A program made the position numbers and the translations under genes. 64,000 nucleotides of DNA from a virus, in the IMG/VR virus record IMGVR_UViG_3300031576_000025, positions 18,219-82,218 of that record; one strand, written 5' to 3'. The notes under the pieces are model-generated. The model ran no database searches. It worked only from the letters and a program-made list of their open reading frames with translations, and was not told where the DNA came from. Each line of letters starts with the position of its first letter. Positions within the stretch are counted from its first letter, which is position 1. Of the stretch, positions 17,936 to 64,000 are shown piece after piece.

Positions 17936-20900
17936 ATGAAAAAGCCCGCCGCCGTCGCCGTCGTCGCCGGTATCCTGCTTGCCGCGTTCGGCAGCCTGTG
18001 GCCGCTACGCGCCGAGGACGAATTGGCGCGCCGTGACGGCAACCGCACGCCGGTCATGCTGGGGGTGGTGGAAGGGACTGGGGAAATCCGCATGATTCGC
18101 ACGACGCCGGACGGCGCGGTTATCATGTCCCCCGCTTCCGGCAGCCCTTCCCAGGCCGTGAACCAGGGCACGGCCGGGGCGCAGGAATGGCCGGTTAAGA
18201 CCAAGAAGGGGACCAGCAGCATGGACGTTTCCGGGTCCACCGTTGGCGTCAGCGGGTCCACCGTCACCGTTCAAACCGACCCCGCCCACCCCATCAACGT
18301 CAACGTCGTTGCCGGGACCATAAACGCTGGCGTGTCCGGCTCCACCATCATCGTGACCGGCAGCACGGTCAACGTCGTCAACGTCGTTTCCGCGCCCCTG
18401 CACGTCAACGTCGTGTCCGGGTCCATCAGCGCCGGGGTTTCCGGTTCCACGGTCCACGTCAAGAACGAGAACGGCGGGACGCTGGCCGTTTCTGCCAACA
18501 ACCTGGACGTTCGGGACCTGTCCTTTGCCACCGACAAGGCCGACGTGACCGGCAGCGCCGTGCAGGTTTCCAACGCCGGTGGCGTGGCGGCCGTCAACGT
18601 GCAGGACGGCGGCAACGTGCTGTCCGTGGACGACGCCGGGGGAAGCCTGACCGTGGACGGGACCGTGGCCGCCACCCAGTCCGGTGCTTGGACGGTCACG
18701 GCCAATGCCGGGACCGGCACCCAGGCCACCGACCCCGTGGACCGGGCCGCCCGCGCGCTTGGCCGGGCCTTCCTGCGGGACCCCACCAACACCTTCAACA
18801 TGGGCAGCGCCGCCGCGCCCGTGCGCGTGGACACGGTGGGCGTCACCACGGCCCCCGTCAGCGTGGACAGCCTGCCCCTGCCCGCCGGGGCGGCGACCGA
18901 AAGCACCCTTTCCACCATCAACGGCAAGCTGCCCGCCAGCGTGGCTGCCGACAGGACCGCCGCCGGGGCCCCGTCCGCCTCCCGCCTGTCGGACGGTGCC
19001 GCGTTCTACAAGGCCACCACGCCGTCCGACGTGCAGCCTATCAGCGCCACCGCGCTGCCCCTGCCCGCCGGGGCCGCCACGTCCGCGAACCAGGCCACTT
19101 CCAACGGCAGCCTTTCCTCCATAGACGGCAAGCTGCCCGCCACCGTCGCCGCCGACCGCGCCACGGCTGGCGCGCCCAGCGCCGCGCGGCTGTCCGACGG
19201 CACGGCCTTCTACAAGGCGACGACCCCAAGCGACACCCAGCCCATCAGCGCAGCGGCCCTGCCGCTGCCCGCGGGCGCGGCCACCGAAACCACCGCCGCC
19301 ACCATCGCCGGGGACACCACCAGCCTGGACGCCAAGGTGCCCAGCCAGGGCCAGGCCACCATGGCCGCGTCCCTGCCCGTGGCAATCGCCAGCGACCAGT
19401 CCGCCCTTCCTGTCACCCAATCCGGTGCCTGGGCCGTCACCGCGAACGCGGGCACGGGCAAGTTCAACACCACCGGGTCAACGGTCAACGTGACGAACCA
19501 GGAGGGGACCAGCCTGGCGGTGAACGACGCGGGCGGGGCCTTGACCGTGGACGCCGTGAACCTGGACACCAGGGACCTGACATTTGCCGCCGACAAGGTG
19601 GATGCCAGCGGGTCCACCTTGGGGGCCAACAACGGCGTGGATATCGGCAACGTCACCGTGGACAACACCGGCGGTGCCGGGGCCGTGAACGTCCAAGACG
19701 GGGGCAACAGCCTGACGGTGGACGACGGCGGAAGCAGCCTGACCGTGGACGGCACCGTGACGGCCAACGCGGGTACCGGCAAGTTCAATACGACCGGCAG
19801 CACCGTCAACGTGGCCAATCAGGAAGGCACCAGCTTGGCCGTGAACGACAACGGGGCCAGCCTGACGGTGGACGCCAGCAACCTAGACGTGCGCGACCTG
19901 TCCAGCAGCCAGGACAGCATCAGCGCCGTGCAGTCCGGCGCTTGGACCGTCACCAGCCACCAGGGCACCGCCGCGGCGCAATCGGGGCGCTGGCCCATGT
20001 TCCTGTCGGATGGGACCAACGAGCGCGGGACGGACACGCTGCCGCTTCGGGTGGACCCCACTGGCACCACGACCCAGCCTGTTTCCGGCACTGTCACGTC
20101 CAACGCCGGGACCGGCACCTTCAACGTGCAGGCGACCGCGGCCAGCCCGGCCGCCGCGCGCTTGTCGGACGGGGCGGCCTTCTACAAGGCCACCACGCCC
20201 GCTGACACCCAGCCCATCAGCGCCGCCGCCCTACCCCTTCCGTCTGGCGCGGCGACGGCGGCCAACCAATCCACCGCCAACGGAAGCCTGGCGTCCATTG
20301 ACGGCAAGCTGCCTGCGGCCCTTACGGGGTCCGGCAACCTGAAGGTGTCCCTTGCGGAATCCACGGCCGTGCAGGCCGTGTCCCAGTCCGGCGCATGGAC
20401 CGTGACCGCGAACGCTGGCACCGGGAAGTTCGACACGACCGGCAGCACCGTGTCTATCCACGGCTCAACCATCCAGGTCCGCAACGCCTTCGGGGAATCC
20501 CTGAATGTGGGCGACGGTTCCGGCCCGCTGACCGTGGACGGGACCGTGGCCGCCACGCAGTCCGGCAGCTGGTCCGCCGCCGTCAACAACGCCGCGGGCG
20601 CGTCCGCGGTGAACGTGCAGGACGGGGGAAACAGCCTGACCGTTGACGCGGCCGACCTTGACGTGCGCGACCTCACCAACGCTTCCGACAGCGTCACCTC
20701 CCACCAGGGCGGCGCTTGGACGGTCACGGCCAACGCGGGCACCGGGAAGTTCAACACCACCGGGTCCACCGTGAACATCGCCAACCAGGAGGGCACATCG
20801 TTGGCGGTCAACGACAACGGCGGCAGCCTCACCGTGGACGCTTCCAACCTGGACGTGCGCGACCTTTCCAGCGCCCAGGACACCGTGGGCAGCGTCCAGT

Positions 20901-55100: not shown

Positions 55101-58100
55101 GGCGCGAATGGAAAAGGCCGACCAAGCCGACCCGGTGGTGAAGCGCGCGCTGGAAGTCATGGGGCCGGTGCTGAAGAAAATCAACGACACGCTGGAAGGC
55201 GGCGGCGGAACGGTGGTGGTTTGAAGGGGGGACGGTGGGAAACACTGAGGACTACGTGCAGGTGCGTGTGCAGCGGGACGTTGACGGGCGCGGCACGCTC
55301 GAGGCGGCGCAGGTGGTGTGCGCGCGCGAGCTGGGGGACAGCGTGCCGGGCGTAGGCGGGCTGCTGGAGGCAATTTACGAGAAGCTGTCCAAGGACCTGG
55401 ACGTGGCCGCGCGCCAACCGGCGCGGGCGCGGACGCCGTGACCGCCAAGGCGGTACCACAGCGCAAGGGCTGCGGACACCCGGACGACGCCTGCCGGTAC
55501 GTGCTTTGGCACGCGCGGGCTGAAACGCGGGACAAGGCCGGGCAGCGGCAGACCCGCTGCCCGCGGTGCAAGCTGTGGCGGTGGCCGTCCAAATGGACGG
55601 GGGCGCTACAGGACCGCATGGAACGCGCGGCGGACGCTGCGGCCAAGCGGGAATCGCGGTCCTGGGCCGCCAGCTTCGCCAAGCACGGTAGACCGCCGCA
55701 GCTGACGGTGGCGCGGACGCAGCGCAAAGAACGCCATGCCGCCGCTGTGCCGTGCGCGGCCAACCAAAAATTCCTAATCCTGTCCAACCACCGGCCGAAC
55801 GGGAACCCCGACATGACGCTGTGGTGGCGTCCCAAAGGCGCTGGTTACACGGTGTTTTTGGACGAAGCCGGGCGCTATACAAAGGAAGCGGCGCTGCAAA
55901 TCGTGCGCGGTTCAAGGACTGACAACAGCATCGTGTCCGAAGCCGTGGCCATGAAGCGTTCGCGCGCCATGGTGCGGCTTGAGGACCTTCCGAATTACCT
56001 GCGGTGGGCCAGGACGGCATAGGCCATGAAGCACAGGTGGGAATGGTGGCAGGAACGCAGGGCCGGAACGCACCCGCTGGCGCTTATGAAGCGGTGCCTG
56101 ACGTGCGGGGTCACTGGCCGCAAGTCCAGCCTGGAATGGGTCAAGCCATGCCCGGGCGTGCCGCACACGCAGGCGTGCCTGCACGACATGGGCCACCTGC
56201 ACCACGGCCCGCCGTGCGCCTGCGCCCCTGTCCATTTCCACCTGGCGGCCGGTGTCTACGCCTGCGGCACCATGTCCCCGCCGGTGCTGCCCAACGTATA
56301 CGACTGGGACAGCGTGACGTGCGGGCCGTGCCTAAAAGTACGCGGCGGGTTTCCTAGCTGCCTTGGCGGAACGTGCGGGTGGGTGGGCGCTAACGGTGGC
56401 GGCTGGCACAGCCATACGCCAGCGGGAATCGTCTTTACTAAGGAGCGCGTGGAATGACCAGCCAGGTGCAGCTGGTCCACCGGGACCCGTGCGGCCAGGC
56501 GACCTTCACGCCCAAGCCGCCGGGCTGGTGGCGGCATTGCGGCTGCCCGTCCGGGTGGCCGCGCTACAACACGGACCTGCGCCGGGACGCGGGCTGCGCG
56601 CCGTGCGGCGCGTGCGGCAGCTACGCGCATGGCGTGCCGGGGCCGTGGTGCCCGGCAGGGGGACGCGGTGGACCTGACGCCTGAAATAAAAGCGTGGATT
56701 GACGCCAAGACCTACGGGGACCTGCTGCACGGCTGGCGTTTTACCCCGTCCGGGGACAAAATCTTTCAGGGCCCCAGCGGGGACTACTGGGCGGCGCGCA
56801 TGAAGCTGCTGCGGGACCAGGGCGCGGACCACGTGGGCGCGTCCAAGCGGCTTGGGTGGGGGAATCCATGAATTACGATGGTTTGCCGGTTCATAAGCGG
56901 GTCAAGAACGTAAGGACCGGCAGCAGCATACAAGGTTCGCTTGAAAAAGATTTGCTCGCTGTCATAGACGGCGCAGAAGCGGCCTTGGTAAGGATTTGGG
57001 CGCTGTCCAAGTGCAGGTGCCGCAAGGAATCTGACGTTGGGGAAGCGTTGACCTGCTACCACAAAATTGCCGCGCATGCCCACGGGGAATTGGAAAGGGC
57101 GCTGGGGCTGGCGTTCGCTGAATCAGAGCGCAGGAAATATGCCATGTGTAATTGCGGGGTGTGCAGGCAGAACCAAAGCCCGAAGCTGGTATGCTGGACC
57201 CACCGAATTTGTCACAGGCCGCACGGCAGCAGGGGCCGCATGGACAACCGCTGGCGGCGCTGCCCGGTGTGCCGCGAGCCCATGTTCGCTATCAGCGGCA
57301 AGGCCCGCATTCCACCAAAACGCAACGTGGCCGCGTGGCGCAGCTTGCAGCAATGGTACGGGCAGCTGAAGGTGGACGCCTGGCAGGCGGGGGGGTGAAC
57401 ATGGCGGACCCAAAGGTGGGGCAGCTGGTGGGCTACAAGTCCGTGCTGACGGACCAGGAATTCAGCCACGTGGCGAAAGTGGACGGGGCATACCCGCATG
57501 GCATATCATCCTGCCGCAAGCCGCTGGTGACGCTGGAAGGCAAGGCTGGCGTGGTCCTGTGGGCGCATTGCACGGTGCTGGACGGGTTGGTGGACGGGCC
57601 GCAGCCATGATGGTGCTGAAATGCAAAGTATGCGGCAAGCGATACCGCCATGTGGACATGTTCCGGTGTCGGCGTGGCGAGCGGCACAGGTTCGTATTTG
57701 TCGCCACAATCCACAAGTGCGGCTGCCCGCATAACTGCAAATACGACGGCGCGCGCCTGCGCCTGGACCCGGTGTGGCACACATGCCCAACCCGCAGCTG
57801 CCAATGGGAACATGGGGTGGCGGGCTGCACGCTGCACAAGGCACAGCTGCCTGGACAGGCAGAAAGTGGAAAGCTACCATGAACAACGTGCTGCGCAGCC
57901 AAGAAGAACGCAACGACGTTGACGCGCTGGTGCTGGTCCTTTGCACCGGGGAACGCGCCGAAGAATGCCCCTGCTGGGGCTGCGCCTTTATCGGGGACCT
58001 GCGCCAAGAATACGGCCGCAACGGACTGCACCGCCTGCGCGCCGCCTTCGACGGGCAGGCCCGCGCCACGACGCTGCGGATTGTTGACCGTGTGCGGGCG

Positions 58101-58280
58101 GCCATGGACGACAGCGTGGGCCAGGCCGACAGCGCGGGGGGCAACATAGCCCTGACGCGCGATGAGGTACGCACGCTGCGCGCGTGGTCCAAGTGGCTGG
58201 AGGCTTGGGTGGCGGGCAACAAGGGCGACCCGGACGCGGTGATGCGGGGTCCGCACGCCGAAGGCTACGGCGGGCAGTAG
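52178..58280 (+). CDS. About 17 coupled hypothetical genes (starts 52178, 52681, 52994, 53605, 53981, 54285, 54512, 54667, 55235, 55438, 56026, 56454, 56668, 56868, 57401, 57607, 57879)
   Basis: Continuous overlapping stop/start chain with G-rich RBSs; many Cys-rich; 54667-55224 has RFRD..YTRNGGGNR..HP.Y..D.DDDFD.TYA. Confidence 0.6.
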
Positions 58281-58289
58281 TGATATAAT
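58281..58289 (+). promoter_or_regulatory. Extended -10 TGaTATAAT
   Basis: Perfect match 8 nt before GTG 58298; no RBS in between. Confidence 0.6.
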
Positions 58290-58297
58290 GCCGTCCT

Positions 58298-59140
58298 GTG
58301 TTCAGACCAGGAAATAACACAACCATCATCTGCCAGATGTGCAACGCCCCAACGCCATGGCGTGCGCACAGTCAAATATACTGCCCGCCCTGTTCTGAAA
58401 AACGAAACAAGGCGCGGGGCAAGGCGTGGGCGGTGGCCAACCCAACCCAGCGGACACCTGCGGACGTGGTAAAAGAGCAGGCGCGGCGGGACCTGCGCAA
58501 AAAGATTGGTGCTGCGACCAGCAAAGAAAATAGGGCAGACCTAACCTGGACACGGGCCGGTGACCCAACGCCGGATTACCTGGTGCGTGTATGGGTCCCA
58601 TGGACAACGGCGCTGCTGAAGAATCACTCATGGTCCTTATCACGCGGCATGGGACATGTTTTCCTACGACGGGAAACTAGGCAAATGCAGGACACATTGT
58701 ATTGGGCAATAAAGGCCCAGCCGGTCCATTTCTTTCATAATAAGGTGTGGGTGGATATCTTCGCGGAAAAGCCTGACCAGCGCAGCGGTGACGCAATCAA
58801 CCTCCTGGACCGCGTGGCCGATTCTATCAAGCGCGCCATCGGCGTTGACGACAGGTGGTACAGCGTCCGCCGCATAGACTGGTCCATCGTCAAAGAAAAT
58901 CCGCGCATCTATATCGGCATGGGGCAAGTGGATAGGTGGGACGGCCAGGTGTGCAGCCATTGTGGGCGCATTCTTTCCATTGATAATTTTCAGCGCAGCC
59001 GCGGCACAAAACTGGGCGTTGGCCGGTCCTGCAAGGACTGTTCCAGCGTGATTGATAAGCTGCGCCGTGACACAAAGCGTGCGACCCAGCAACATGGTCC
59101 TGCCGACTTGCCGCCCGACGTGGAACCGGCCGCACCGTAG
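58298..59140 (+). CDS. RusA-like resolvase/endonuclease flanked by Zn fingers
   Basis: D.IN....V.D......VDD...NPRI.I core; CQMC..C..C at N-terminus; CSHC..F..G....CKDC at C-terminus. Confidence 0.7.
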   Translation: MFRPGNNTTIICQMCNAPTPWRAHSQIYCPPCSEKRNKARGKAWAVANPTQRTPADVVKEQARRDLRKKIGAATSKENRADLTWTRAGDPTPDYLVRVWVPWTTALLKNHSWSLSRGMGHVFLRRETRQMQDTLYWAIKAQPVHFFHNKVWVDIFAEKPDQRSGDAINLLDRVADSIKRAIGVDDRWYSVRRIDWSIVKENPRIYIGMGQVDRWDGQVCSHCGRILSIDNFQRSRGTKLGVGRSCKDCSSVIDKLRRDTKRATQQHGPADLPPDVEPAAP

Positions 59141-59164
59141 CCGCGGCAGTCCAACAGCGTGCAT

Positions 59165-59208
59165 TAACAGTTTAACCTGTTGCAATAAACACCGCTGCGT
59201 GGTATTAT
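59165..59208 (+). promoter_or_regulatory. Promoter TTGCAA-17-TATTAT with extended TG and TAACAGTTTAA box
   Basis: AT-rich gap; imperfect dyad AACAG..CTGTT. Confidence 0.65.
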
Positions 59209-59214
59209 CGCCGC

Positions 59215-60636
59215 GTGGCAGAACCGTCGCGGCGCAGGCGCAAACATGAACGCCCGTATATTCGGCCAGTCGCTTTTTCGCAGCAAGTCCTTGCCCGCAA
59301 GTCCGCCAAATCCCACCTGCGCTGCGGCTGCTGCCACGGCCTGAACAAGGTCATGGGGGCAACTATCGTCTGGCGCGCCTGCCGGTGCGGCAACCCGGAC
59401 ACGCTGCGCTGCTTCGCGTGCTGTCGGTGCCGTGCGCACTGCAAGTGCGGGGTGCCCATGCTGATACCGGGGCGGCGCGTGCCGCCGCCGTGGGCACGTC
59501 CGGGGGATATGGAAAACATGCCGCTGCGGCGGGTGGTGGAAGTCCAGGGGCGCGCGCGCGTACTTTTGCTGGTCTAGGAATCGGGGGGGAACATGCGGGA
59601 CCAAGAAATTATACAGCGGGACGAGGCGGTGTCGGCGCAGGGCGCGAATCGTCTTATCCGGATGGCGGGGAATTTCGACAAGACCATCGCCGCCTTGCAG
59701 ACCCAGCTACAGCGCGCCAGCCAGGTGGCCATTCAGAACCACCTGAAGCTGGAAGCCATGGCCAGCCTGTTGGTGGACCAGCCGCCGCTTTTCCGCATGT
59801 TCGGCCGCGGCTGGTTCACGCGGCGGCTGACGGCGGCGGATTTGGACGCGCGTTTCTGCAAGCTGGAAGCCGACATGGCGGCCATGACGGCCGCCCGCGC
59901 CAAGGCCGAAGCCGAAGCCGTGGCCGCACAGACGGCCGCCGACGCGGCGCGGCAGGCGCGCGACGAAGCCCCTATGACGACGCCGGACGCCGTGGTGGAC
60001 CAGGGACGCAACGCAATCCTGGGGCCGGACGGCAAGCCGGTGGCCCATGCGTCCGTCAGCGGGGCTGGCGCGGTTTCTGGACGCAAAGGCGTGGTGGCCC
60101 CCCCGGAAGGGGCGGGGCCTGCGGCGGGGGTCGGCGGTGGCGAACCTGGGGCGTGAAGCCGGGCCTGGAAATTCAGGGCCGAAGGGGGCCATAATCGTGA
60201 AAGGGCTGTACGAACGCCGGACCTGTGGGAAGCTGAAGGGCGGGCGCGGGTGCGGCAAGGGGTTTTGGCCGCAGTACCCCAACCAGCAGGTGTGCGCCGG
60301 GTGCGGTCCTAAGCTGCGGGCCGCCTACCTGCTGCGGTTCCAGAAGCTACACCGCAAGCAAAAGCGGCAGGAATGGACGGGGGACAGGGCAGCATGATTC
60401 CGAACGTGGGACTGGAAACGATGTTCGCGCTGTTCGGCATGTTCCTTGTCGTCATGGGCCTGGCCGGGTCGCAGCGCGTCAAGGTGGTGTCCATTGAAGT
60501 TGGCCCGCTGCGTGACGGCTGGCGCGTCGTCGCCGTCGTCATTGGCCTGCTGACCATGCTGGGAATCGGCGTGCTGCATATGCACCACGACCACGGGACG
60601 CACGAAGAACATGCGCACCCGGCGGCTGCGAAATGA
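59215..60636 (+). CDS. Four genes: Cys-rich 59215-59577, coiled-coil 59593-60156, Zn finger 60197-60397, two-TM His-tailed 60394-60636
   Basis: ORFs with RBS or coupling; composition as stated. Confidence 0.6.
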
Positions 60637-61067
60637 CGGTGCGCACCGCCAAGGTCACCCTGCCAGCCGCCAGGCACGGCCGCGGCGCGCGCCGCGGGAA
60701 GGCCCTGCGCAGCTTCGCGCAATGGCTGGTGTCCGCATACCCCGGCCGCCTCCCGCTGACGTTCACGCTGGTGCCGCACGACGCCGTGCAGTCCATTGAC
60801 GGAAAGGGCGGCTTTGCCGTCTACCTGCCCGCCAAGAACGTGATTTATCAGGCGACCGGCGACCGGCGGCTGGACGCAGACGCCATGGCGCACGTGCTGG
60901 CGCACGAATACAAGCACTACCTGCAACGCTGCGCGCGGACGCCGTACACGCACCGCGGCGTGGCGCGCTGGGCCTGGGCGCGGGTGCGCGAATACAAGGA
61001 CCAAAGGCAGTACGGACGGACGGCGAAGAAAACTTCAAGGCGGCGCACCAGGGGGGTTCTGGCATGA
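60633..61067 (+). CDS. HExxH metallopeptidase-like protein
   Basis: VLAHEYKHYLQ. Confidence 0.55.
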   Translation: MTVRTAKVTLPAARHGRGARRGKALRSFAQWLVSAYPGRLPLTFTLVPHDAVQSIDGKGGFAVYLPAKNVIYQATGDRRLDADAMAHVLAHEYKHYLQRCARTPYTHRGVARWAWARVREYKDQRQYGRTAKKTSRRRTRGVLA

Positions 61068-61639
61068 AAGGGAAGCAGGCAGCCGCGGTGGACGCTGGCG
61101 CTGGGCCGCTGGACGCGGCCGAAGTGGACATGACGAAGGGCGGGCGGTTCCGCAAGGTCACGGCCACGCTGGCGCTGCAAATGGACCGGCCTTTCAGGGT
61201 CCAGACCAAGGAAGGCGTCATGGTCGGAAAGGCTGGGGACTGGTTGGCCGAAGGCGCGCACGGCGAACGCTACCCCATTGACGCCGCGATTTTCGCGGAC
61301 ACCTACGTGCCCGCCGCCAGCGGGGCCCCCAACGGGTCGCGGGTCTACGCGGCGCTGGGCTATGAAGTCCAGTTCCAGCACGGGCCGCGGGAAGAAAAGG
61401 GGCGCAACGGGTGCCGGGTGGACGAGCTGCTGCGGCTGTGCATGGTCCGGCTGGACCAGCTGAACGCCGGTGCCGGGGCCTGCCGGGAATTCAGCCTGTC
61501 CCTGACCCACCTGGAAACCGCCCTGTTGTGGCTGCAACGGCGGACCCAGCGCCGGGTGGAACAGGGGGTGTCCGGCACCAACAAGCCGCACACCAACGCC
61601 TACCAGCTGGTGGAAAGCCCCATGGCGGTTTCCACGTGA
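61064..61639 (+). CDS. Fusion of a PGDYG-like domain and a Tad1-like (Thoeris anti-defence sponge) domain
   Basis: N: T.EG.M.G..GDWL..G..GERYPI...IF..TY; C: VQFQ.GP..E.G.NG...ELL....RL...AG...REFS..LTHLE.ALLWL.RR...R...V.GTN. Confidence 0.75.
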   Translation: MKGKQAAAVDAGAGPLDAAEVDMTKGGRFRKVTATLALQMDRPFRVQTKEGVMVGKAGDWLAEGAHGERYPIDAAIFADTYVPAASGAPNGSRVYAALGYEVQFQHGPREEKGRNGCRVDELLRLCMVRLDQLNAGAGACREFSLSLTHLETALLWLQRRTQRRVEQGVSGTNKPHTNAYQLVESPMAVST

Positions 61640-63688
61640 AAACACGCCATGTGGCCGGGCCGGACGACCGGGTGGCGGTTCTGGACGCCCCCGTGGTCCC
61701 CACCGGCGGCGCTGACCAGGCCACGAAGCCGGAAGAAAAGGAATCCATTGACGACCTGTACCGGCGGGCGCGCAAGCCCCCCGCGGAAGGTCCGTGCAAG
61801 GGCTGCGGACAGGACCGGCCGCTGAACCGCCTAATGCTTTGCTTCCGCTGCTGGGTGCTTAAGAACTTGTCCGACTGGGCCAAGCTGGAAGGTAACAGCT
61901 GGTCCGTGGGTCAGCCGCACCCGTCGTGGTGCCACTGCGGGCTGCCGGAACATGCCGGGCAGGGCGGCGGGAACTAGGGGGGGTCATGCAATCGCGCAAG
62001 CTGTTTGTGGTGGACCAGGTGACGGACGACAGCACGGGCTGCCACGTCGTCGGGGAACTGGATTACGGAATCTTCGGTGACGCTTACGACTACCTGGCGA
62101 ACGAACCGGACGGCCGGGCGAAACTGTCGGCTTTCCTGAAAGGCTTGGCTGACGCCGCCCTAAACGGCACCGCGCCGTTCAGCAAGGCCGTGGTGGAAAC
62201 GGCCAAGCGGCAGCCTGGCGCGCCGGTGGCAAAGTCCGCGGTTCTGGCCGCCCCGGGGACCCCCCCCGGCGGCGGTGCCCCCGTGGAACCTGGGCGCAAG
62301 GGCGTCCACCCGCTGGCCGCGGCCTTGGTGGCGCTGACCGAATGGCGCAAGCGGCGCGCGCAGACGCCCCCGTTGCCAAAGCCAATGGGGTGGTGGTAGC
62401 CGTGGCCGTCAACGTGTGGGGGTGGCGGCGCTGGGTGGCCTGGGGCACGCTGACCGTGCTGGTGGGGGCGGCGCTGGCAGGGGCGTGGGGCTGCGCGCCG
62501 CGCAAGGTCGCGCCGGTGACCGGCCTGCCTAGCGCGGCACAGACCGTGGTTAACAGCAGCACGACCTACCGGGTGGACCAGGGGCAGCCCGCGGCGCGCC
62601 CGGCGGCTGCGGTGAAGCCGTGCCCGCTGGACCCTGGGGCCCCGTGCAGCCTGGGCACGCCAGGGTCATGGGACGCCCCGGCGACCCGCGACACGCCGGG
62701 AAAACGGTAGGCCGTATGGCGCAGCAAGAAATGGCCAGGTTGCTGGTGGACAAGGACTGCAAGGCGTGCGTGACGGATTGGCTGCGCGGGCCGCAAGCCG
62801 CAGCCGGTCTGGCGGCCGGTGGCGACGTTGCCGGGCTGCTGACGTTCAAGCCGTGCGCGGACCACAAGCGGTTCGCCTGCGGCTGCGTGCTGGAACAGCT
62901 GGACCGCGGCAAGGTGTCCATGACGCCATGCCAGGTGCACGCGGCGGAAATGTTCACCAAGGGCGGCTTCACAATGGACTTCGCGCCCCCGAAGCCCCCG
63001 GTCACCGCCACGCTGGTCAACAACGGCGTGACGCGCCTGGCCGACAGCCTGAAGTGCAAGGGCTGCCACCCGCTGACCGGCGTGGTTCAGGACGCCAAGC
63101 TGGTCCGGCGCGTGGTGGTGGATGGCGCGCCAGCGGGGGAATACCGCTGCCCGCTGGACCATGTTTTCACGGCCGGACCTGTCACGGTGACGCCCACATG
63201 AAGCTGGGCAGCTGCCGCGCGTGGGTCCCGACCACGTACTACCGGGACGTTGGCCTGTGCGACTGCAAGCTGGCGATTCAGGATGGCTACTGCGTGCGGC
63301 ACAGGTCGCGCGCCGCCGCCTTGCAGCCCAACGACGTTGCCAGGCTGGTGTGCCGCGGCTGCGGCGCGACAGCGGGCACGCGGGAAGGCGAAGTGGTGGC
63401 GCGCGCGTGTTTTCAGCACGCCTTCGCGCGCTGCGGCGGGAAGGTGGTTTTGGTGGCGGCGCGCTTGCCGGAATCGGTCAAGCGAATGCTGGGGGTGTAA
63501 TGGCGAAGCGGTGCAGGTTTCTTGCTGGTGGTTCCAGCCTGGCGACGGGCAAGCTGTGCGGCGCGCCGGGGCAGCGTGTGCTAGTGACGGTGCTTGAGGG
63601 GTTCCAGGCCAACGGGCCGGTGCTGCGCCCAGCGCAGGCCGCCGTAGCTGTGACGCTGTGCCAGACGCACCAGGGCGTGTTCGGGTGA
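61636..63688 (+). CDS. Six small genes (61636-61977, 61986-62399, ~62390-62710 lipoprotein-like, 62716-63201, 63198-63500, 63500-63688)
   Basis: Coupled ORFs, mostly Cys-rich; ALAGAWGC lipobox in the third. Confidence 0.55.
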
Positions 63689-63963
63689 CGCCGCCGGTCG
63701 GCGTTTCTTGCCCGGCTTGCCCGGACAGCATGGGGCTGACGGACACGGGGCTGTGCGTGCGCTGCGAAGGAAGCGGCGTGGTTCTGCTGGACGCGGGGCT
63801 GGGGCATGGCGCAATGGTGGCGCAGGCCGCTGTTAACGGCAAGGTTCCAGGTTCGAGTCCTGGTGCCCCAGTCGCGGGCCCGGTCAACAGCAGGGCGTTG
63901 TCCGCGCACGACGGGACGGCGTGGGTGGATTGGCTGGACACCGGGGTGGCGGAGCATGGGTGA
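63685..63963 (+). CDS. Zn-finger microprotein ORF spanning the tRNA gene
   Basis: GTGA start overlap; CPAC..CVRC; stop overlaps the next ATG (63956). Confidence 0.45.
   Translation: MTPPVGVSCPACPDSMGLTDTGLCVRCEGSGVVLLDAGLGHGAMVAQAAVNGKVPGSSPGAPVAGPVNSRALSAHDGTAWVDWLDTGVAEHG
63800..63871 (+). tRNA. tRNA-Asn (GTT), no encoded CCA
   Basis: TGGGGCA/TGCCCCA acceptor, GCGC D-stem, GCCG-CT GTT AA-CGGC anticodon arm, CCAGG-TTCGAGT-CCTGG T-arm, G73. Confidence 0.9.
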
Positions 63964-64000
63964 CAACGCGGCGGAAGTGGCGCGGGCGGTGGCTGCCGAC

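Follow-up and report, generated by a model that had tools for sequence, protein, structure and literature searches.

Tad1 is a phage sponge for nucleotide immune messengers, with a four-stranded N-terminal sheet and a ligand pocket walled by four loops, among them the one between strands β2 and β3, as described in the preprint of Leavitt et al. (10.1101/2022.05.03.490397). Sponge domains are often fused to one another, and fusion to Tad2 or Acb4 led to the Sequestin family in the work of Tal et al. (2025; 10.1101/2025.07.12.664507), the Pfam queries of which are given as Tad2 and Acb4 only. Here we describe a gene at 61064..61639 (+ strand) in a 64,000-nucleotide stretch of the IMG/VR virus record IMGVR_UViG_3300031576_000025 (positions 18,219 to 82,218; the whole stretch is hereafter the window), which encodes a truncated Tad1 module joined to a PGDYG-type small β-barrel. 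A sequence-only reading of the window had taken the product for a Tad1-like sponge fused to an uncharacterised PGDYG-like domain, and had stated that sponges occur fused to other sponges, in agreement with Tal et al. (2025).

The C-terminal half of the 191-residue protein resembles the solved Tad1 structures (CbTad1, PDB 7UAV, 7UAW, 8SMD and 8KBE; CmTad1, 8KBB) in its hairpin, two long antiparallel helices and GTN lid, and it has equivalents of R90/T97, R109/R113, R57, R78, G55, G120, N122 and W105. Unlike Tad1, the protein lacks the first ~27 residues (β1, β2 and the conserved GxGGAxH loop with H29), carries substitutions at N92, F87 and F82, continues for 18 residues past the lid and begins with a PGDYG barrel. 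The same β4–hairpin–lid unit is found in short Tad1-like metagenomic proteins (~95–125 aa), one of which (P0155) is 55–58% identical to the query over the aligned part and another of which (P0079) shares its REF motif; many of them end in "PH.S", which the start of the query's tail (K-P-H-T) resembles. These short proteins differ in lacking the PGDYG domain, and a number of them could be incomplete gene calls from short contigs. Stand-alone phage PGDYG proteins (PF14083, ~80–100 aa) share a near-identical motif string with the N-terminal half, the six-strand barrel and helix of which fit their BFVD models, whereas in the query this domain is fused to a Tad1 module and scores below the Pfam cut-off. 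In joining a known sponge to a small, more often stand-alone phage domain, the protein recalls the sponge–sponge fusions Acb4–Tad2, Sequestin–Tad2 and Sequestin–Acb4; unlike in these, the PGDYG partner is a candidate only, and the Tad1-like half alone comes from a proven sponge family. Acb2 (Vs.4 of phage T4, PDB 7UQ2) also has a two-helix hairpin, and Pfam joins both families as Acb2_Tad1_hairpin. However, no Acb2 chain was found at E ≤ 10 in PDB sequence searches with the query or with a profile of the short forms, and in a structural comparison 7uq2_A reached Z 5.1 through the helices alone.

A Truncated Tad1 Module in the C-Terminal Half

The assignment of the C-terminal half to Tad1 in the sequence-only reading was borne out by sequence and structure comparisons. 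A phmmer search of the complete PDB sequence set gave seven distinct hits, comprising six Tad1 chains and gp184 of phage phiKZ; E-values were 6e-12 for CbTad1 (7UAV/8KBG) and 7.8e-10 for CmTad1 (8KBB), with query residues 101–173 aligned to CbTad1 49–122. Residues 100–174 matched phrog_2428 (E 3.7e-17), and the Pfam model Acb2_Tad1_hairpin gave 20.1 bits, which is under its gathering score of 27 bits. The profile of short Tad1-like proteins matched the frame of the gene at E 1.7e-35 in a search of the record and, with the query included, matched CmTad1 at E 3.3e-29 and no Acb2.

An AlphaFold2 (AF2) model of the full protein, built on 150 homologues, has a mean predicted local distance difference test score (pLDDT) of 88, with values of 95–98 for residues 21–80, 74 for 81–90, 63 for 91–100 and 91–98 for 101–170. 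Foldseek comparison of the model with the PDB gave Tad1 chains for all 20 listed matches at E ≤ 0.001, the structural match that the sequence-only reading had named as a check. VIA-align, which is independent of Foldseek and covered 48,161 chains, ranked CbTad1 8kbe_A first (Z 9.9, root-mean-square deviation (rmsd) 1.8 Å over 85 residues), superposing model residues 91–175 on 8kbe_A 28–124 at 34% identity; CmTad1 followed at Z 8.1, and the best unrelated chain reached Z 5.9. The strands of the module lie at residues 93–95 and 101–104 and its helices at 119–135 and 141–167, and both the AF2 model and the VIA-align superposition contain the two long C-terminal helices after β4 and the C-terminal lid loop.

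The four-stranded sheet β1–β4 with its conserved β2–β3 loop is not preserved. No counterpart of β1–β2 and the conserved loop (about the first 27 residues of Tad1) was identified, the structural alignment beginning at chain residue 28, and a GxGGAxHxY-type N-sheet motif was not found in the query, where residues 26–84 form the PGDYG barrel instead. Such a hairpin-plus-helices unit exists without β1–β2 elsewhere, because 38 of the 119 Tad1-like matches are short proteins in which the Tad1 part begins ≤35 residues from the N-terminus and no PGDYG domain is present. Residues 91–175 are a genuine but minimal, truncated relative of Tad1, and full Tad1 membership is qualified because the N-terminal sheet and the complete set of ligand contacts are both lacking. 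Of the earlier proposal of Tad1 fused to an extra domain, the Tad1 identity and the fusion hold, but not a whole Tad1, since β1–β2 and the β2–β3 loop are missing. The module descends from Tad1 and would work like it, as a minimal variant.

Ligand-Site Residues

Residues were mapped through the phmmer alignment to CbTad1, the numbering of which agrees with every residue named in the papers, and ligand contacts were taken from the lists in the preprints of Leavitt et al. (10.1101/2022.05.03.490397) and Li et al. (10.1101/2023.11.15.567273). Column counts refer to 119 Tad1-module sequences, comprising the query, database matches and two phage homologues. CbTad1 contacts glyco-cyclic ADP-ribose (gcADPR) through 11 residues, H29 through N122, and seven of these are retained: G55, R57, R78, R109, R113, G120 and N122 correspond to G107, R109, R129, R160, R164, G171 and N173. 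Three others are altered (F82 to L133, F87 to G138 and N92 to F143), and H29 falls in the missing region. According to the same contact lists, F82, F87 and N92 of CbTad1 stack on, buttress and read the adenosine, N92 reading the Hoogsteen edge of the adenine (Leavitt et al., 10.1101/2022.05.03.490397).

The occurrence of REF in place of the usual REN, to which the sequence-only reading had drawn attention, is upheld by the alignment of F143 with N92 of CbTad1, a column with N in 111 sequences, T in 5, F in 2 and W in 1. The second REF protein is P0079, a 97-aa short Tad1-like form, and the presence of the variant in this unrelated protein speaks against simple decay. Glycine in the F87 column occurs in the query alone (1/119), leucine is frequent in the F82 column (39/119), and the R109 and R113 columns each hold arginine in 118 of the 119 sequences. 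The pair that lines the cyclic-trinucleotide pocket of CbTad1, R90/T97, aligns with R141/T148, both of which are retained. At the hexamer-interface positions of CmTad1 (R88, T95, K96, Q98, E99, M102, W103 and K106) the query has R141, T148, H149, E151, T152, L155, W156 and R159, a comparison by alignment alone in which R, T, E, L, W and R are retained. We infer that the trinucleotide site is intact and that the dimer-end pocket recognises bases differently, probably accommodating a different ligand or base, or a different binding pose.

The N-Terminal PGDYG-Type Domain

Residues ~26–84 are a PGDYG-type (PF14083-like) small β-barrel without a close solved relative. The Pfam PGDYG model matched residues 31–81 below its cut-off (E 2.3e-4, 21.9 bits vs. 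27 bits) and only over its second half (model positions 49–101 of 102), and a six-frame search of the record with PF14083 gave 22.9 bits. Matches to phrog_419 (E 8.4e-11) and, for residues 30–81, to an 80-aa PGDYG protein of Streptococcus phage IPP24 (BLASTP E 6e-11) agree, together with the predicted barrel, with the earlier view of the N-terminal half as a separate PGDYG-like domain. An exhaustive phmmer search of 1.84 billion representatives returned 3,018 proteins at E ≤ 0.001, and many stand-alone proteins of 72–150 aa match residues ~20–90 with E-values between 1e-11 and 1e-14. Twenty-three stand-alone homologues give the consensus FRK..T.A..M..PF.V.T.EG.M.GK.GDWLA.G..GE.YPIDA.IF..TY, which is near-identical to the query motif, and the domain has both homology to the family and its G-D-[YW]...G-E-x-Y-P...F..TY motif. 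Across 64 sequences D59 is invariant, and M1, K31, A37, T48, E50, G51, G64, G67, E68, P71, F77 and Y81 are near-invariant. Both motif strings quoted in the sequence-only reading are present in the translation, and the similarities are far beyond chance: T48.E50G51..G58D59..G67E68.Y70P71..F77..T80Y81 is encoded at 61205–61306 and F104Q105.G107...R141E142F143...L147T148H149.E151.A153L154.W156..R159R160...R164...G171T172N173 at 61373–61582.

Modelled alone, the N-terminal domain folds into six strands and a short helix (pLDDT 85.6). Foldseek found no match for it in the PDB at E ≤ 0.001, and its best VIA-align score was Z 4.7, in a list made up mostly of small barrels of the Tudor, SH3, CarD, Mfd and UvrD types; against BFVD, Foldseek matched viral "PGDYG protein" models (best E 7e-5). 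The orientation of the PGDYG and Tad1 domains is undefined in the full model because the predicted template modelling score (pTM) is 0.54 although both domains have pLDDT >90. In a protein atlas, part of a 461-aa patatin-like phospholipase cluster (Bacteroidota) superposes on the PGDYG-like barrel over 71 residues with a template modelling (TM) score of 0.81 by query, TM scores of short barrels carrying little meaning. Patatin phospholipases act as effectors in signalling defence systems.

Three candidate relatives of the domain were rejected. The PDB profile matches to the phycobilisome linkers CpcN and CpcJ consist of repeated 30-residue motifs of 7–9 bits each and are attributed to composition or motif chance. 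Lockin is described as lacking a domain annotation and as absent from INPHARED, where the protein P0012 matched 863 records, some through the PGDYG part alone (e.g., H65, H66, H69 and H70). Acb4 is described as similar to a double-stranded RNA-binding motif, and the query has no PF13876 match. Hadary et al. excluded sponge proteins with an additional "PDB 6E3C"-like domain; 6e3c is a weak Foldseek match for the N-terminal domain (probability 0.35–0.38), and that filter may or may not have removed PGDYG fusions.

Recurrence of the Fusion and Partners of PGDYG

Local hidden Markov models (HMMs) made from the 150-sequence alignment were run on 197 proteins collected as query matches, and PGDYG and Tad1 modules occurred together in 19 of them, a proportion that is not a population frequency because all 197 are matches to the query itself. 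Eight of the 19 fusions, including the query and the very divergent P0040, have a linker of 8–31 residues and lack the Tad1 N-terminal sheet, and the other 11 have a spacer of 45–82 residues, with a GxGGAxHxY-type N-sheet motif in four. A tree of the 74-column Tad1 module (117 rows) has good support at 6 of 114 branches; the eight short fusions require eight changes on the best, poorly supported tree and one change forced by supported branches, a result that is neutral on independent origins. In several large Bacillus phage genomes with Tad1 homologues, a PGDYG-like gene is present apart from the Tad1 homologue (two places per record), and some large Bacillus phage Tad1 homologues are labelled "ABC transporter ATPase" by their depositors.

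PGDYG-like domains are also joined to other sponges. After a protein-atlas match had pointed to Tad2, a tblastn search of INPHARED with a protein composed of PGDYG and a full Tad1 led to WCZ55007 (182 aa; L006:2501-3049) of Latilactobacillus phage TMW 1.2272 P1, a cultured temperate phage. This protein contains a Tad2-like domain (PF11195, E 7e-27, residues 92–180) behind a PGDYG-like N-terminal domain (BLASTP E 8e-11 to the query; hhalign 98.6% to the stand-alone family). In a set consisting of WCZ55007 and its 120 best database relatives, all 120 with PF11195, HMMs detected a PGDYG-like domain in 67 of 121, only one of which is labelled PF14083 in precomputed Pfam annotation. Most PGDYG–Tad2 fusions are therefore invisible to the Pfam PGDYG model, which may be why architecture-based screens missed them. 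A 310-aa metagenomic protein (P0308) combines Acb4 (PF13876), a PGDYG-like domain (residues 110–207, E 4e-26 with the local HMM) and Tad2 (PF11195), and in Ruegeria phage 45A6 (L009:1932-2657) a PGDYG-like gene is followed after 3 nt by a Tad2-like gene. PGDYG is a candidate second sponge or sponge partner because the same fusion logic revealed Sequestin.

Other partners of PGDYG-like domains among the query's matches are a 2H phosphoesterase with either a poly(A)-polymerase-type nucleotidyltransferase or DUF5661, and a Ser/Thr/Tyr kinase. According to Chang et al. (PMC11722364), the 2H phosphoesterase superfamily includes Acb1, a nuclease acting against the cyclic-oligonucleotide-based antiphage signalling system (CBASS). 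Up to 16 PGDYG-like stretches occur in giant metagenomic proteins (P0005, 3743 aa; P0009, 3138 aa; P0030, 1994 aa; P0018, 1452 aa). A C-terminal zeta-toxin/AAA_33-type kinase domain is present in P0005, P0009 and P0030, and annexin repeats are found in P0005 and P0018. Stand-alone PGDYG genes are found in mixed contexts, flanked by MazG and ThyX genes in Gordonia phage Anon and, in two Streptococcus phages, by portal or minor-capsid genes on one side and scaffold or capsid genes on the other.

Proposed Function and Alternative Explanations

We favour, with a probability of about 0.62, a phage counter-defence protein that combines a minimal Tad1-type signal sponge of altered specificity with a flexibly linked PGDYG module. 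Its oligomeric state, ligand binding and anti-defence activity are predicted as follows. By analogy with Tad1, residues 91–175 would pair through a β4–β4 seam and a four-helix bundle, and three such dimers would then form a hexamer. By capturing nucleotide immune signals of the host, the assembled protein might keep Thoeris or CBASS-type effectors from being switched on. The pocket at the trimer interface (R141, T148), which looks intact, would bind cyclic trinucleotides. The dimer-end pocket, which in Tad1 holds gcADPR or cyclic dinucleotides, retains the phosphate and ribose contacts and has lost the adenine-reading set; thus remodelled, it may hold a phosphate-rich nucleotide. The PGDYG barrel is a separate module that recurrently accompanies sponges and would serve as a second ligand-binding or accessory unit; it is taken to be flexibly tethered because of the pTM of 0.54 and the low-confidence linker. 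The PGDYG–Tad2 fusions and the Acb4–PGDYG–Tad2 protein lend support to the earlier suggestion that the N-terminal domain is a possible new module for anti-defence or ligand binding. A bolder version, which we regard as rather doubtful, would make PGDYG an unrecognised, widespread counter-defence module (a new sponge or an obligate sponge partner), here combined with a minimal Tad1 (N92F, F87G) for a signal other than gcADPR or cyclic GMP–AMP (cGAMP); it is put forward because of the recurrent fusion of PGDYG to sponges of three unrelated kinds (Tad1, Tad2 and Acb4–Tad2) and to 2H phosphoesterase-type enzymes.

Several observations weigh against a signal sponge. The β2–β3 loop, one of four around the pocket of Tad1, is missing, and three base-contacting residues differ, including the otherwise almost invariant N92. 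As reported in the preprint of Li et al. (10.1101/2023.11.15.567273), CbTad1 F82A/N92A loses binding of gcADPR and 2′3′-cGAMP, but not of cyclic triadenylate (cA3), and binding of the classical Thoeris type I signal may therefore be lost here. In addition, a word-indexed protein search at E ≤ 0.001 matched the query itself only, and no related loci were found in viral and genome contigs with the single protein as query; because there is no close relative, long-term conservation of this exact form cannot be demonstrated. The same losses (near-invariant N92, F87 and the β2–β3 loop) and the lack of close homologues in the protein search and in the viral and genome contigs could instead mark a decayed or repurposed Tad1 remnant, in which the C-terminal module no longer binds signals and is a mere oligomerisation scaffold for the PGDYG domain. 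We consider this improbable, because all phosphate and ribose contacts, the trinucleotide pair, W156 and the GTN lid are kept, which is unexpected under neutral decay, and because the GC content at third codon positions (0.87) and the intact frame indicate selection. It is equally improbable that the two halves form an integrated unit, with the PGDYG barrel replacing β1–β2 of Tad1, packing on β3–β4 and supplying a pocket wall of new specificity. Eight of the 19 fusions do lack the Tad1 N-sheet and have linkers of just 8–31 residues, and Foldseek aligns ~150 model columns to entire Tad1 chains. These long alignments, however, have rmsd values of 12–14 Å, the rigid fit being limited to residues 91–175; the pTM and the low-confidence linker also count against this reading, the 38 short Tad1-like proteins have no PGDYG-type domain at all, and the 11 fusions with 45–82-residue spacers, four of them with the N-sheet motif, indicate that PGDYG is not a general substitute.

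A two-pronged inhibitor, in which PGDYG itself is a second, independent sponge-like unit and two signals are blocked as by Acb4–Tad2 fusions, is possible but on balance unlikely. PGDYG occurs in three sponge contexts, with Tad1 (19/197), with Tad2 (67/121) and in Acb4–PGDYG–Tad2 (P0308), and the PGDYG-like gene of Ruegeria phage 45A6 adjoins a Tad2-like gene; equivalent fusion logic yielded the Sequestin family (Tal et al., 2025; 10.1101/2025.07.12.664507). PGDYG-like domains are also joined to 2H phosphoesterase and nucleotidyltransferase domains (P0096, P0126), and stand-alone forms of ~80–100 aa are common in phages. Against this, of the 13 conserved PGDYG residues three are acidic (E50, D59 and E68) and one is basic (K31), whereas known sponge pockets are described as positively charged (Tal et al., 2025; 10.1101/2025.07.12.664507). 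The PGDYG repeats in giant kinase-bearing proteins suggest a generic binding or adaptor module. The fold class is Tudor/SH3-like by VIA-align and Foldseek, and such barrels mostly bind peptides or nucleic acids. Finally, the Tad1-like module could belong to a capsid-internal or structural protein rather than to a cytoplasmic sponge, which we judge very unlikely. The short-form Tad1 profile matches residues 146–228 of phiKZ gp184 (PDB 8y6v chain I) at E 1.3e-15, a protein described as an inner-capsid minor structural protein, large portions of which are unresolved and which has protease cleavage sites (PMC11297242). Moreover, several Bacillus phage Tad1 homologues in INPHARED are annotated as "structural protein", and some stand-alone PGDYG genes are flanked by head genes (portal or minor-capsid on one side, scaffold or capsid on the other). 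The gene studied here, however, lies ~60 kb into the window among early or accessory open reading frames (ORFs), far from the head and tail genes at 0.9–23 kb, the "structural protein" labels are unverified annotations by depositors, and packaging and sponge function can coexist. A packaged, possibly injected Tad1-like domain in phiKZ gp184 would be of interest in itself.

Gene Layout and Genomic Setting

The features of the gene are given in Table 1. Its ATG and the stop of the preceding ORF 60633–61067 overlap (ATGA at 61064–61067), and an AGGGGGG run lies 8–14 nt 5′ of the start. GC content by codon position is 0.70/0.49/0.87, as expected of a real gene at a genomic GC content of 66%. It is the sole PGDYG-like and the sole Tad1-like match in the whole 82-kb record.

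Table 1. Features of the PGDYG–Tad1 gene, in window coordinates.
Feature	Position	Strand	Description
Complete coding sequence	61064..61639	+	191 aa, then TGA stop; two modules; packed between small + strand ORFs without a family match
PGDYG-like small β-barrel, residues ~26–84	61139..61315	+	six strands and one short helix (model)
Linker, residues 85–90	61316..61333	+	lower model confidence
Truncated Tad1 module, residues 91–175	61334..61588	+	β3–β4 hairpin, α1 119–135, α2 141–167, GTN lid
R141-E142-F143...T148	61484..61507	+	cyclic-trinucleotide pair R141/T148 and unusual F143
R160, R164 and G171-T172-N173 lid	61541..61582	+	equivalent to CbTad1 R109, R113 and G120-T121-N122; Arg: phosphate, base stacking
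C-terminal tail, residues 176–191	61589..61636	+	starts K-P-H-T; pLDDT 60–72

The window is the last 64 kb of one linear IMG/VR virus record of 82,218 bp, with almost every gene on the + strand and a CheckV completeness estimate of 78%. PHROG scans, which covered 34 larger ORFs of the record, matched structural and lysis families (major head protein, head–tail adaptor, neck and minor tail proteins, endolysin) as well as an integrase (− strand), a topoisomerase, a Cas4-like exonuclease, DnaD/DnaC-like loaders, a methyltransferase and an ATP-dependent protease-like protein. The record represents a temperate tailed phage because head, adaptor, tail, endolysin, integrase and replication genes are all present. 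No INPHARED match was found by megablast with window positions 58000–64000, which leaves the phage without a near relative there, and its capsid protein has best identities of only 27–29% to known capsids.

Among the 22 neighbouring ORFs at 51.5–64 kb, three have a PHROG match, to a DNA-repair family, to a family of unknown function and to a RusA/HNH-like protein, and Pfam matched none of the 22. Because its neighbours mostly lack a family match, the surroundings of the gene amount to a typical accessory block of small ORFs, where anti-defence genes are usually found. In the upstream ORF 60633–61067 (+; 144 aa), which the ATGA overlap couples translationally to the gene, an HEYKH (HExxH-type) motif hints at a small zinc metallopeptidase; this ORF has no Pfam or PHROG match. 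The downstream ORF 61636–61977 (+) is cysteine-rich (CxxC...CxxC) and possibly starts with a GTG that overlaps the stop of the gene (GTGA). In the cysteine-rich ORF 58298–59140 (+; 280 aa), a RusA-like match is combined with HNH/zinc-finger-like matches.

Novelty and Significance

Full-text literature searches for PGDYG or PF14083 found no paper, and neither name occurs in the readable supplements of Tal et al. (PMC12265669). In the searchable papers, a scope outside which bioRxiv supplements fall, we likewise found neither the PGDYG–Tad1 architecture nor the N92F/F87G pocket, nor an association of PGDYG more widely with Tad1, Tad2 and Acb4–Tad2.

Immune-messenger sponges are a fast-moving field in which sponge-fused domains have already revealed one new family, Sequestin. 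The gene described here appears to be a variant of the Tad1 sponge and offers a concrete, cheaply testable hypothesis. A minimal Tad1 without the N-terminal sheet and without the near-invariant adenine-reading Asn could show how Tad1 specificity evolves. The uncharacterised PGDYG domain is common in phages, and its repeated fusion to Tad1, Tad2 and Acb4–Tad2 makes it a testable candidate for anti-defence; if it is indeed an anti-defence module, this would provide a function for thousands of phage genes.

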